From the NCBI GenBank assembly GCA_963666345.1, contig OY762721.1, positions 3,328,001-3,392,000 of the forward strand: a stretch of 64,000 nt of DNA, in the 5' to 3' direction. Within the stretch, counting starts at the first letter, position 1. Each line of letters begins with the position of its first letter. This document shows positions 17,431 through 53,351 of this stretch, in pieces. Both the position numbers and the translations under genes were made by a program. Origin of the DNA: Desulfatiglandales bacterium. Its GTDB lineage: Bacteria; Desulfobacterota; DSM-4660; Desulfatiglandales; Desulfatiglandaceae. The notes beneath the pieces are model-generated. The model saw only the letters and a program-made list of their open reading frames with translations. It was not told the DNA's origin and made no database searches.

Positions 17431-18816
17431 ATGAAAACCGAAGAAAAACAAAAACGGATCAAACGATCAACATTGATTGTGTCGACAATCGCATGTTTTC
17501 TTTCCCCATATCTTGGCTCGGCGGTAAATGTATGCCTGCCGGCAATGCAGCAGGACCTTTCCATAGATGCGGTGCTTTTGAGCTGGATTACGACTTCCTA
17601 TGTCCTGACAAATGCCATGTTCGCGCTTCCGCTCGGCAAGGTCTCGGATATCTGGGGAAGAAAGAAAAGCCTTGCAACAGGGATCGGACTCATAATGATT
17701 TCCTCTTTTTTATGCCCCTTTGCCGGAACAGCCGGGGTCATGATTGCCCTGCGTGTATTTCAGGGGATAGGCGGGGGGCTTGTTTCGGTTGCCGGCCTTG
17801 CCATTGTTTCATCTGTCTTTTCCCCGAAGGAAAGGGGAAAGGTGCTGGGAATAGTGATCGCATCGGTTTACGCGGGCCTGTCTGTCGGCCCTTTTGCAGG
17901 AGGGTTTCTTACCCAGACATTCGGCTGGAAGAGCGTATTTCTGTCTGCCGCGCTGATGGGATTTATCGCCCTTTTATTCATAGTTTTCGGGTTGAAGGGT
18001 GAATGGGCGGACGCGGCAGGGGAGAGGCTTGATTTTTCAGGATGTTTTCTCTATTCCCTTTCCATCTTTCTTGTCACCTACGGGGCTACCATGCTTCCAT
18101 CCCTTGATGCAGGTTTTTTTATCGCAGCAGGAACGGTCTGCCTCTTTTTTTTCGTGGTTCATCAGATGCGTTCTTCCACGCCCCTTTTCGATGTACGCCT
18201 TTTTGTGAGCAACAGGGTCTTTACGTTTTCAAGCCTTGCAGCGCTTATTCATTATTCGGCAATCTTTGCCGTAACCTTTCTGATGAGTCTCTATCTCCAG
18301 TATGTGCTGGGGCTTTCTCCCCAGACCGCAGGCCTCGTTCTGCTTGCCCAGCCCCTTATGCAGACCGTTTTTACACCTGTCGCAGGGAAGCTCTCCGACA
18401 TGAAGGACCCTGGTCGTGTAGCATCCCTGGGCATGGCGGTAACAGGACTGGGTCTGCTTCTGCTTATCTTTCTTAAAACCGATTCATCCCCTGCCTTTAT
18501 CATTATAAGCCTGATGCTTCTGGGGCTTGGGTATGCATTTTTTTCATCCCCCAATATGAATGCGATAATGGGATCGGTTGAAAAGCGCCATTACGGGATC
18601 GCATCAAGTGTTACCGCGACCATGAGGAGCCTCGGCATGACCGCGAGCATGGCCGTGGCAACGGTTACCATTTCCATCTGCATAGGAAGAAACGAGATCG
18701 CAGCGGAGACTTTTCCGGCACTCCTTGAAACAATGAGGATATGCTTTACGATTTCCATCGTGCTCTGCTGCTTCGGTATCGTGGCTTCCCTTTCACGCGG
18801 AAAGGTAAATAAGTGA
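17431..18816 (+). CDS. MFS transporter, DHA2 (EmrB/QacA-like) drug efflux family
   Basis: GKVSDIWGRKK motif A, RVFQGIGG and GPFAGG motif C; about 14 hydrophobic segments. Confidence 0.9.
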   Translation: MKTEEKQKRIKRSTLIVSTIACFLSPYLGSAVNVCLPAMQQDLSIDAVLLSWITTSYVLTNAMFALPLGKVSDIWGRKKSLATGIGLIMISSFLCPFAGTAGVMIALRVFQGIGGGLVSVAGLAIVSSVFSPKERGKVLGIVIASVYAGLSVGPFAGGFLTQTFGWKSVFLSAALMGFIALLFIVFGLKGEWADAAGERLDFSGCFLYSLSIFLVTYGATMLPSLDAGFFIAAGTVCLFFFVVHQMRSSTPLFDVRLFVSNRVFTFSSLAALIHYSAIFAVTFLMSLYLQYVLGLSPQTAGLVLLAQPLMQTVFTPVAGKLSDMKDPGRVASLGMAVTGLGLLLLIFLKTDSSPAFIIISLMLLGLGYAFFSSPNMNAIMGSVEKRHYGIASSVTATMRSLGMTASMAVATVTISICIGRNEIAAETFPALLETMRICFTISIVLCCFGIVASLSRGKVNK

Positions 18817-18974
18817 AGATACGGCAAGGTCTAAGACGGGGAGCGGGTCCTGCCGCGAATAGCCAGGCGAATCAAGGCAAAGACCATGAGCGGCTGCTAA
18901 CGGATTCCGGAACATTTTCATTGAAAAAATGAAAACAATTGAGTCCATGCTATGGATTTGCTATATATAAATTT

Positions 18975-19457
18975 GGATCATCTCCAAAAGAGTTGGTCTA
19001 AATGAAGGATTGGAGGGGTCAAGGGGCCGCGGGTTCGAGTGAAAAGCTTAAAGATCATAGGAAGTTAAACGTTCGGTAAAAAAAATTGTATACACCTTGT
19101 TTGCATATGTATAAAGAAACGAAATGTTTTTTTAAAGATGAGCAATACTGTTTTACCTCCCGAATCAGAAGATCCGCTGTTTTCGTATCAAGGGATACCG
19201 CCTAAGGGTATGGGAGAAAAACGGCTATAGAGTATATGCAATTTTTCTTTATTGCATATGGTTTAGCCTGTGAATTGGAAACCCGGGACATGATATCAGT
19301 TGGCCTGGGTTATTTGAAAGAAGTAAGCTTCAGAGATTAAGAAGGGAAATAAGGGATGTCGGGGCAATGTCCAAAGCGATGATCAAATCCCTGGAAAGAA
19401 AACCCTTGAATCCTTGGACCCTTGGACCCTCTTCGACAACTAAGTTGGAGAAGAACC
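18975..19457 (+). mobile_element. Non-autonomous TIR element (copy 1) carrying a decayed four-helix-bundle gene
   Basis: Ends are GGATCATCTCCAAAAGAGTTGG and CAACTAAGTTGGAGAAGAACC (imperfect inverted repeat). ATAAATTT is directly repeated at 18967-18974 and 19458-19465. Confidence 0.88.
19045..19430 (+). pseudogene. Four-helix bundle protein (23S rRNA IVP / Avd-like family) pseudogene
   Basis: Reads LKDHRKLNVR*..CLHMYKETKCFFKDEQYCFTSRIRRSAVFVSRDTA*GYGRKTAIEYMQFFFIAYGLACELET..LGYL, then after a frameshift MIKSLERKPLNP. This matches the family pattern FPxxExYGLTSQIRRSAVSxPSNIAEGYGR..F.IAYGS..ELETQ. Confidence 0.85.
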
Positions 19458-19689
19458 ATAAATTTAAATGTCGGCTTTTTCCCCGATCTTCTTACCTTAA
19501 ACCGAAATCGATTTTTGCGATTTACATTTTTTTCGCTCAATGTGAAAGCACTTAATCTTTTTCTCAAAATTTTTTGGCTGTCTGTTAGTGATCCCTGTTC
19601 CATTTAAAGATACAAGATTCTCCAACACAGATCCTGTAGGCCGTTTTAATCGAGGACTTTTTTTTAACCTTAGCGTTAAGGAGGTTGCT

Positions 19690-21138
19690 ATGAGTGCAAA
19701 AAAATTGACGACATCGGCCGGGGCACCGGTTACAGACAACCAGAACTCGCTTACCGCCGGTCCGCGAGGGCCTCTTCTGGTGCAGGACTATCCGCTTATG
19801 GAAAAGCTCGCACACCAGAACCGGGAGCGGATACCTGAGCGTGTCGTGCATGCAAAGGGGTGGGGCGCGCACGGCATATTCACGGTCACCCACGACATTA
19901 CGAAGTACACAAAGGCCGCGGTATTCTCCGAGGTGGGAAAGAAGACCGAAATGATAGCCCGTTTTTCCACCGTGGCTGGCGAGCTTGGCGCGGCCGATGC
20001 CGAGCGGGACGTGCGAGGCTTTGCTCTAAAGTTCTATACGGAAGAGGGCAACTGGGACATGGTGGGAAACAACACGCCTGTATTTTTCGTAAGGGACCCT
20101 TACAAGTTTCCTGACTTTATCCATACCCAGAAGAGACATCCCAGGACCAATATGCGATCACCGAAGGCGATGTGGGATTTCTGGTCACTTTCACCCGAAT
20201 CGCTACACCAGGTAACGATCCTTTTCTCCGACCGGGGTCTTCCCGTCGGGGTTCGTAACATAAACGGGTACAGCAGTCACACATACAGCTTCATCAATGA
20301 CGAAAATGAACGTTTCTGGGTCAAGTTTCATTTCAAGACCATGCAGGGTCACAAACACTGGACTAATGCCGAGGCAGCCGAGGTAGTGGGAAGGACCAGG
20401 GAATCGACGCAGGAGGACCTGTATAACGCCATTGAAAGGGGGGATTTCCCCAAGTGGAGCTTCCAGATCCAGGTCATGCCTGAAAAAGATGCTGAAAAGA
20501 CCCCATATAACCCGTTTGATCTCACCAAGGTGTGGCCGCACGGGGATTACCCGATGATCGATGCCGGGATCATGGAATTGAACCGTAATCCGGATAACTA
20601 TTTTACGGAAGTGGAGCTTGCAGCCTTTTCACCCTCGAATATAGTTCCCGGCATAAGCTTTTCACCCGATAAGATGCTGCAGGCAAGGGTGTTTTCCTAT
20701 GCGGATGCGCACCGCTACAGGCTGGGGACCCATTACGAAGCCCTGCCGATAAATGCTCCCAGATGCCCGGTGAATCACTACCACAAGGACGGGAAGATGA
20801 GGTTCTCTCCCAACTTCCCCAACCCTGACGCATATTATGAGCCGAACTCATTTAGCGGACCAGTTGAGAGCCCTGAATTCAAGGAGCCGCCTCTCAAGAT
20901 AAGCGGTGATGCGGACCGATACAACCACAGAGAGGGAAATGACGACTACGGACAGCCCAGAGCCCTGTTCAATCTCTTTGACGAGGGGCAGAAGGCCCGG
21001 CTTTTCTCGAACATTGCCGAGGCCATGCAGGGAGTGCCGGAGGAGATCATCGAGCGCCAGCTCGGGCACTTTGAAAAGGTGCACCCTGATTACGGCGCAG
21101 GAGTTCGTGCGGCATTGGATGAGTTGGCAAAGAAGTAG
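19690..21138 (+). CDS. katA: Monofunctional small-subunit heme catalase
   Basis: [22 protein letters not shown] and [14 protein letters not shown] (proximal Tyr). ATG at 19690 after AAGGAGG. Confidence 0.95.
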
Positions 21139-52851: not shown

Positions 52852-52888
52852 AGAGTGCTTTGGTACTGGATTTCAGATCAAAATATAA

Positions 52889-53296
52889 GGTTCTTCTCCA
52901 ACTTAGTTGGCGAAGAGGGTTCAAGGATCCAAGGCGTCAAGGGTTCAAGGGTTTGTTTTCTAGAGACTTTATCAGTATTTTTAACAATTTATTGATCTCT
53001 GTCTGCCTTATGTTATTTGAGGATTTTTCATTTATTCTATACCTAAAAAAAGTTTGTAGAACTTCTGCAACAGCTTTAGATTTTTGTAATGCATTAGCGG
53101 TGTTATCCGCCGTTTCAATGGAGCACTGGAATCCTTGAAACTGGGAACCCTCCCTGAGCTGGCCGAAGGGTGGGACTGAGCGAAGCGTTAGTGGAGCAAA
53201 GAATCCTCGACCCCTTCCTACGAACTCTCAGCCGCTTAAATAAGAAGGGTTTCATCGTTTAGTCCTGTTTAACACCAGCTAATCGGGAGATGATCC
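52889..53296 (-). mobile_element. Non-autonomous TIR element (copy 2, inverted, internally deleted) between uppS and cdsA
   Basis: Ends are GGTTCTTCTCCAACTTAGTTGG (52889) and CCAGCTAATCGGGAGATGATCC (53296). AAATATAA is directly repeated at 52881-52888 and 53297-53304. The minus strand retains MHYKNLKLLQKFYKLFL and EINKLLKILIKSLENKPLNP* fragments. Confidence 0.88.
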
Positions 53297-53351
53297 AAAT
53301 ATAAAAGGTTGAGACTGATATGGGGACTATACGCCTTCGCCCCGATTCCCA

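Follow-up and report, generated by a model that had tools for sequence, protein, structure and literature searches.

The 483-bp segment at 18975-19457 of the window is best explained, at a probability that we put at about 0.88, as a defunct copy of a non-autonomous transposon of the ISL3 family, in other words of a mobile insertion cassette decaying into miniature inverted-repeat elements (MITEs). The window is the whole 64,000-nt stretch analysed here, bases 3328001-3392000 of a 4.16-Mb single-contig genome with 48% G+C. In its full form of about 480 bp, the cassette consists of the two slightly different ends (GGATCATCTCC... and GGTTCTTCTCC...) of a 1.34-kb ISL3 insertion sequence (the cognate IS), with the transposase gene replaced, in the same orientation, by the gene for a 120-aa four-helix-bundle protein that is enclosed in its own inverted arms of 8-nt units. 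An ISL3 DDE transposase supplied in trans would bind these ends and would insert the cassette at AT-rich sites through 8-bp staggered cuts.

Structure and multiplicity of the elements

The boundaries, inverted ends and flanking duplication that had been proposed from the letters of the window are all borne out by direct reading: the element is 483 bp long, its 21-nt terminal inverted repeats are identical at 16/21 positions (GGATCATCTCCAAAAGAGTTG versus the reverse complement of GGTTCTTCTCCAACTTAGTTG), and ATAAATTT forms a perfect 8-bp target-site duplication. The features are as follows.

18967..18974, no strand: left copy of the target-site duplication, ATAAATTT, read directly
18975..18995, + strand: left terminal inverted repeat, GGATCATCTCCAAAAGAGTTG, 20/24 against the left end of the cognate IS at locus L149
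19007..19043, + strand: upstream arm of about four 8-nt units (TTCAAGGG type), GAGTGAA last, complementary to the downstream arm
19044..19402, + strand: decayed 23S_rRNA_IVP four-helix-bundle gene, PF05635 match at 19089-19343
19403..19429, + strand: downstream arm, an array of 8-nt units (CCCTTGAA / TCCTTGGA / CCCTTGGA)
19437..19457, - strand: right terminal inverted repeat (reverse complement GGTTCTTCTCCAACTTAGTTG), 21/24 against the right end of the cognate IS at locus L153
19458..19465, no strand: right copy of the target-site duplication, ATAAATTT, read directly
52881..53304, - strand: second element, 408 bp (52889-53296) in the opposite orientation, with its duplications included

The first element lies outside the 23S rRNA gene and is flanked by an MFS transporter ORF (17431-18816) and by a catalase ORF that extends to 21138; its longest open frame is 61 aa, and it contains no transposase gene. 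The GGATCATCTCCAAAAGAGTTG end is of the type that is found upstream of the transposase in the cognate IS, and the end on the GGTTCTTCTCCAACTTAGTTG side is of the type that contains the transposase stop codon there. In intact copies, the first unit of the downstream arm codes for the last residues of the protein.

The second element, which the sequence-only reading took for another copy of the gene-bearing cassette, is flanked on both sides by its own duplication, AAATATAA (52881-52888 and 53297-53304), and matches the first at both ends, in the downstream arm and over about 100 bp on the 3' side; it also contains one copy of the nested repeat of about 60 bp. Its longest frame gives no match to PF05635 at E <= 1, and it is missing from the 39 genome-wide PF05635 matches; thus, it is a member of the same end family that holds no recognisable second copy of the gene.

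Genome-wide, the 11-mer ends GGWTCWTCTCC occur 59 times in forward and 49 times in reverse orientation, far above the roughly 3.8 per strand expected by chance. Pairing of exact ends at a spacing of 150-3000 bp, with no condition on the flanks, yielded 23 pairs, among which the duplication is perfect in 17, has one mismatch in five and four mismatches in one. A relaxed search (at most one mismatch per end, at most one flank mismatch, spacing up to 12 kb) yielded 37 elements of 105-603 bp, and addition of the intact copy described below gives a strict set of 38, so that the genome holds at least 38 elements, 25 of them with perfect 8-bp duplications. When the right flank was slid by 9-59 bp as a control, no perfect match was obtained at any of the 51 offsets. 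The duplicated 8-mers are 83% A+T, compared with 52% for the genome. The cassette ends read GGTTCTTCT or GGATCATCT and show the ISL3-like start GG(C/T)TCTTC, and one copy starts GGCTCTTCTCC; left and right end subtypes are found in mixed combinations among the elements. The proposal that the copies are independent insertions is upheld by many copies at unrelated AT-rich sites.

Additional support comes from two marine-sediment metagenome runs, in which the flanks of the window element were recovered without differences. Contigs cross from these flanks 28 and 25 bp into the element, many contigs with other, unrelated flanks break exactly at 18975 and 19457/19458, and the summed depth of the element exceeds that of the flanks by a factor in the tens, which confirms both the boundaries and the multi-copy nature of the element. 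Among the sequencing runs listed as containing this stretch, none was of RNA. The search for empty sites that the same reading had proposed came out negative: no empty allele was found for any copy in two other genera, the sequencing runs or the metagenome transporter loci. The genome collection holds no other species of the genus of the window organism; within two other genera, the comparisons led to an orthologous copy that lacks the ORF and to flanks without synteny. Contigs of the sequencing runs reach into the element on either side, with none spanning an empty site, and among the metagenome loci of the adjacent transporter, the one at 100% identity stops inside the element and the one at 91% loses synteny 53 bp past the gene.

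The four-helix-bundle cargo and its hairpin

The relic in the window passes the cut-off of PF05635 (23S_rRNA_IVP; E 1.1e-11, 46.7 bits against a cut-off of 33.8, at 19089-19343), in agreement with the family assignment made from the letters, and is 58% identical to an intact copy over 19047-19343. It had been described as carrying two stops and a frameshift; the decay and the frameshift, a 1-nt deletion near codon 100, stand, whereas comparison with the intact copy reveals three in-frame TAA stops, two of them within the HMM match, and a start codon changed from ATG to AAG. The intact copy, the only one among the end-bounded loci of this genome, lies on the minus strand at genome positions 3089063-3089543, has the same type of ends with TAAAGTAG on both sides, and contains a 120-aa ORF that matches PF05635 at 4.9e-40 (136.5 bits), TIGR02436 at 4.8e-40, NF008911 at 152 bits and PDB 2gsc (Xanthomonas XCC0516) at 4e-28.

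A PF05635 profile search of the genome returned 39 matches at about 36 loci: 20 loci fall within the strict end-bounded set, seven have both ends at a relaxed threshold, two have a single end and eight have no ISL3-type ends. Only one of the approximately 29 end-bounded loci is intact, and none of the eight loci without ISL3-type ends contains an internal stop. The intact cargo genes in other genera are under purifying selection, with dN/dS of 0.08-0.18 in the 16 of 55 pairs for which dS could be estimated (dS is below 1 in seven of these 16); L180, L181 and L182, where the ends are missing or degenerate, are part of this set.

Inverted 8-nt arrays flank the ORF in every gene-bearing copy, with the TTCAAGGG type upstream and the CCCTTGAA type downstream. 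In the predicted fold of the intact element, the arms are paired around the ORF and a small separate hairpin forms at each ISL3 end; the fold reaches -149.5 kcal/mol (z -5.17), and none of 100 shuffled sequences folds as well. Moreover, the distant PF05635 genes without ISL3 ends, both in this genome and in relatives, are bracketed by inverted arrays of other short units, such as GGCACAGAG, CAGCTGTCAGC, GGACCATGGACAAT, GGAACGCG and TTGATTGA. In most of 29 loci, pairing between cognate arms is far better than the average over non-cognate pairs, with a noisy control because arms are common to the members of one clade. Given that the ORF-in-stem design is common to the cassette and the 23S intervening sequence (IVS) of Coxiella, the cargo is an IVS-like module enclosed by a hairpin, to which the ISL3 ends are external.

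The transposase and the movement of the cassettes

The mobile-element inventory of the genome (self-comparison combined with Pfam) comprises an IS21 element (2453 bp, about 16 copies), an IS4/Tn5-like element (1888 bp, three copies), an IS200 element (622 bp, six copies) and an ISL3 element (1349 bp, three copies that are 99.9-100% identical). The ends of the resident ISL3 are perfect over 24 bp, GGTTCATCCGGCAAATGCCGGGGT, and its 8-bp duplications, TCTTTTAT, ATTAAAAA and AAGATTTT, are AT-rich.

The likely source of the cassette ends was traced through a related genus. At locus L026, a remnant of the C-terminus of an ISL3 transposase ends within GGTTCTTCTCCGAATTAGTTG, with the stop codon inside the repeat. 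With the 55-aa transposase tail from this locus as a query against 209 genomes of the order, near-identical tails (87-98% identity) were detected in eight genomes, mostly at contig ends. Two full-length copies of the cognate IS were recovered, one at L153 (1484-2826, 1343 bp, with ACAAAAAT on both sides) and one at L149 (297-1640, 1344 bp, with non-matching flanks). The GGATCATCTCC... end lies upstream of the transposase start and the GGTTCTTCTCC... end at the stop codon. The ends of the window copy match those of this IS at 20/24 (L149, left) and 21/24 (L153, right) with the same left/right asymmetry, and the target-site duplication is 8 bp in both the cassettes and the L153 IS. Furthermore, all 20 strict PF05635-bearing elements have the gene oriented with its start towards the GGATCATCTCC-type end and its stop towards the GGTTCTTCTCC-type end, which indicates that the cargo sits in the place and orientation of the transposase. 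Against NF033550, for which the cut-off of 180 applies to the whole protein, the two ORFs of the L153 IS (231 and 165 aa) reach 176.3 and 122.2 bits, and their identity to the ISL3 transposases of catalogued plasmids does not exceed about 40%. The transposase is split at an A8 run in both full-length copies, so its activity is putative.

Within this genome, end pairs were sought at spacings of up to 12 kb and none encloses more than 603 bp, so that no autonomous copy is seen, and tblastn with the two ORFs of the cognate IS finds the three resident ISL3 copies alone, at about 35% identity. The expectation of an autonomous partner with the same ends is therefore borne out in related genera and not here; likewise, of the proposed cassette family moved in trans, the non-autonomous family with PF05635 in its full form holds, and the same-end partner within the genome does not. 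Across the order, the eight genomes with the cognate-type tail (at >=87%) overlap little with the genomes that contain the close gene clade; most of these genomes are fragmented MAGs, and repeats assemble poorly in such data. The copies in this genome may have been moved by a cognate IS that has since been lost, by one on an unassembled replicon or through cross-mobilisation by the resident ISL3. With the cognate IS absent and the resident ends as divergent as they are, an ISL3 transposase is a putative agent of the recent jumps in this lineage.

The alternatives to the trans-mobilised ISL3 cassette differ greatly in weight. The IS1595-type DDE transposase named in the sequence-only reading can hardly be the mover: AT-rich 8-bp duplications and inverted ends of about 20 bp are compatible with that family, but its transposase domain (PF12762) has no match in the genome (completeness 96.7%), the cassette ends agree at 20-21/24 with those of an ISL3 IS whose right end contains the transposase stop codon, and the ends of the IS21, IS4/Tn5-like and IS200 elements of this genome are unlike those of the cassette. 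An IS1595 origin is accordingly rejected. Cross-mobilisation by the resident 1349-bp ISL3, in a family still active in this genome, is unlikely, yet far from negligible. This is the sole ISL3 in the genome, its near-identical copies each have an AT-rich 8-bp duplication, GGTTCATC, its first 8 bases, is similar to the cassette ends, with a short palindrome next in both, and the cassette pairs that are 99-100% identical argue for recent movement. The resemblance, however, is confined to these 8 bases, the window copy matches the resident ends at 10-12/24, the resident transposase is about 35% identical to the cognate type, and no MITE family carries the resident ends (10 matches at <=4 mismatches, six of them the ends of the resident IS itself).

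That the cassette owes its mobility to the four-helix-bundle protein itself appears very improbable, even though this protein is encoded by the sole ORF of the full element, its gene is under purifying selection, hairpin-enclosed copies without ISL3 ends are also scattered in the genome, and an intact copy or paralogues may supply it in trans. Over 484 bp, the window copy and a copy at 2733376 are 99.2% identical, with in-frame stops in both members, and two 346-bp elements at 1465503 and 3006784 are 100% identical and without a PF05635 match in the genome-wide profile search; the flanks are unrelated within both pairs. Since broken or gene-less copies have thus spread, an intact gene in cis is unnecessary for movement. 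Moreover, hardly any end-bounded gene-bearing copy (1 of about 29) is intact, the duplications flank the ISL3 ends rather than the hairpin arms, and the 120-aa helical bundle has no similarity to the alpha-bundle tail of the ISL3 transposase (E 12). A further alternative concerns the origin of the cassette, not its present mechanism, and is a serious contender at somewhat below even odds: an independently mobile hairpin cassette could have entered an existing short ISL3 MITE instead of displacing the transposase of a complete IS. The gene-free MITEs with the same ends in several phyla, the stop-free hairpin cassettes without ISL3 ends (the eight loci here, and others in relatives) and the mixed combinations of end subtypes are all compatible with such a composite; the fixed orientation of the gene in 20/20 elements fits a single founding event of either kind and so favours neither origin. 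For the mechanism of present movement, we retain the ISL3 cassette mobilised in trans.

Distribution, significance and known systems

The end pattern GGWTCWTCTCCNNNNNAGTTG was scanned over a collection with one genome per prokaryote species, in which roughly a thousand matches are expected by chance; at least 120 stretches matched, 80 of which were examined, and the matches with G+C-rich flanks look like chance. Among the matches listed, at least 11 of the 80 loci have a second inverted end 123-489 bp away together with an 8-bp duplication; according to the record titles, they come from Desulfobacterales, Halanaerobiales, Acetothermia, Nitrospira and other MAGs, and most are short and gene-free, with such gene-free MITEs of 123-350 bp present in several phyla. 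The 39 inner ORFs (of 81 candidates) beside the 80 examined loci include no ISL3 transposase by Pfam, and a short ISL3 fragment at L038, detected by tblastn, is the sole find of this kind among these loci. A Desulfosarcina MAG (L034) contains a 489-bp element whose PF05635 frame is open, shares 85% identity with the intact copy and has ATA in place of the ATG start.

Within the order, the intact protein has matches in 93 of 209 genomes (E <= 1e-20), and the close clade (62-85% identity) is bounded by such ends in at least 10 further genera (loci L179, L183, L184, L185, L186, L188, L189, L190, L195 and L034). Perfect duplications are present at L179 (TTAAATTC) and L189 (AATATTTT); several cassette relatives have no matching 8-bp flanks, and in two species of one genus (L180 and L182) the gene is present without such ends. 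At one orthologous site in two species of a genus, the right-end junction is common to both and the ORF between the arms is lost in one, which shows a route by which ORF-less MITEs arise from the cassette.

Proteins of the PF05635 / TIGR02436 family are abundant, patchily distributed and of puzzling function. The family to which the window relic belongs provides DNA-level evidence that genes of the 23S rRNA intervening-sequence family travel on transposons. It defines a vehicle, namely ISL3 ends with 8-bp duplications at dozens of independent insertions, for which a partner IS can be identified in related genera; intact copies evolve under purifying selection, and a natural series leads from intact cassette through broken gene to ORF-less MITE, so that both mobility and the function of the PF05635 protein become directly testable. 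The mobility of rRNA intervening sequences has been a mere hypothesis since the early 1990s, according to PMC4990558, which attributes the proposal of movement through the element's own protein to Ralph and McClelland (1993). ISL3 cassettes offer a concrete possible route of such genes into rRNA genes.

Beyond this, we tentatively raise a broader reading, itself on the doubtful side: hairpin-enclosed four-helix-bundle genes might be widespread selfish modules that ride ISL3-type transposons, their insertion into rDNA might have given rise to the ORF-bearing 23S intervening sequences, and the protein might act on the hairpin RNA or DNA of its own cassette as Avd does with the RNA of diversity-generating retroelements (DGRs). 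The arms co-vary around every gene clade examined, and an ISL3 MITE is reported inside a 23S rRNA gene (PMC11448079); both observations fit such modules.

Mobile insertion cassettes, of which MIC231 of Bacillus cereus is an example, and MITEs are already well known, and the part that appears new is the PF05635 cargo on ISL3 ends. Like these elements, the one described here has IS-type ends, a duplication of the IS length, no transposase, many copies and, in its full form, a passenger ORF; it differs in that a hairpin-enclosed PF05635 passenger occupies exactly the position of the transposase and in that the passenger is decayed in nearly all copies of the genome. No published ISL3 cassette with PF05635 cargo was found in the literature searched, which left most subscription journals and ISfinder outside its scope, and within these bounds the claim that the cassette had not been described before holds.

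The closest parallel in transposon type is the 187-nt ISL3-derived MITE of Microcystis aeruginosa PCC 7806, which, according to PMC11448079, has GGCTCTTCG ends and 8-nt direct repeats and occurs in dozens of copies, one of them within a 23S rRNA gene, with the partner inferred from common ends. The cassette agrees with it in the ISL3-type ends (GGCTCTTCG there, GGTTCTTCT or GGATCATCT here), the 8-nt repeats, the dozens of copies and the manner in which the partner was identified; a PF05635-family gene is absent from the Microcystis element, whereas no insertion in 23S rRNA is seen here. With respect to the cargo, the closest parallel is the intervening sequence of Coxiella burnetii, in which, according to PMC4990558, an S23p ORF lies in an inverted-repeat stem that is cut by RNase III, with heptamers before the start codon. 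The protein family, the ORF within a stem loop and its tendency to decay are the same; the tandem repeats just upstream of the start are heptamers there and octamers here, and the present element lies outside rRNA and is bounded by ISL3 ends and 8-bp duplications.

The two remaining comparisons are more distant. With the Avd proteins of DGRs, the cargo has a distant four-helix-bundle similarity (bAvd PF22296, 26.1 bits; NF033474, 25.5 bits), with scores below the respective cut-offs of 40 and 80, and an element of 481-483 bp is too small for a reverse transcriptase or template repeats. With IS1595-family MITEs, it has in common the 8-bp duplication and the short inverted ends, but the genome encodes no IS1595 transposase, and the ends are those of an ISL3 IS.

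Position of the window copy and a nested repeat

The window copy, a 483-bp transposase-less cassette with ISL3-type ends and a decayed PF05635 (23S_rRNA_IVP) gene, begins 159 bp after the stop codon of a transporter gene and ends ~230 bp before the start codon of a catalase gene (window 19457-19690), and therefore fills most of the catalase upstream region.

Within the 8-nt arms, the inverted arrays that enclose the cassette gene inside the ISL3-type ends, a separate repeat of ~60 bp is frequently found; it is present in 56 copies in the genome, including 18 in the strict elements (the 38 end-bounded cassettes) as well as solitary copies. Its internal stem occurs in two variants, the differences between which are compensating changes.

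Window 53130-53200; genome e.g. 2066636, 2748445, 2900179: ~60-bp repeat (GAAACCGGGAACCCGC...GGGACTGAGCGAAGCG...GCAAAGAA)

Cassettes of relatives and PF05635 genes lacking ISL3 ends

Two congeneric species differ at an orthologous site (L184:1181-1960 versus L219, G127:C540:881-1130): one possesses a complete gene-bearing cassette, and the other lacks the ORF but retains the same right-end junction and the arms. A distinct 205-bp repeat adjoins this site in one species and is missing from the other. In four loci from other genomes (L179, L183, L184 and L075), a second end-like sequence of the GGTTATCTCCAATTGAG type lies upstream of the gene, ~60 bp inward of the outer left end, which suggests mosaic or nested end modules in some relatives' cassettes.

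The genome of the window also encodes eight PF05635 genes without ISL3 ends, none of which contains internal stops. Inverted arrays flank every one of these genes on both sides, built in each case from a short tandem unit particular to that gene, and four of the eight are clustered in less than 20 kb (1627755-1646064).

Genome 1627755, 1631805, 1633108, 1645777, 2066743, 2453592, 2953963, 2965270: PF05635 genes without ISL3 ends

Resident IS elements and the cognate ISL3 transposase

The ends of the resident ISL3 element are perfect over 24 bp, and its 8-bp duplications are AT-rich; a search of the genome for MITEs derived from it detected none. The IS21-family element is present in ~16 copies of 98.7-100% identity; the intact cassette lies ~1 kb from one of these.

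Genome 1172257-1173605, 3211806-3213154, 3541257-3542605: resident ISL3 IS, 1349 bp, three copies, 99.9-100% identity
Genome 411618-414070 and about 15 further places: IS21-family element, 2453 bp, IstA/IstB-type ORFs

In both full-length copies of the cognate ISL3, the IS of related genera whose ends match the cassette, the transposase is split at a shared point, a run of eight A (GTTAAAAAAAAC), into ORFs of 231 aa and 165 aa (or 108 aa).

L153:1995-2010 and L149:1100-1130 (related genera): A8 run in the cognate ISL3 transposase

Past this run, reading in the other frame recovers the usual ...IVFDMFHVV... motif. The split, common to copies from two genera, may reflect programmed slippage instead of decay.
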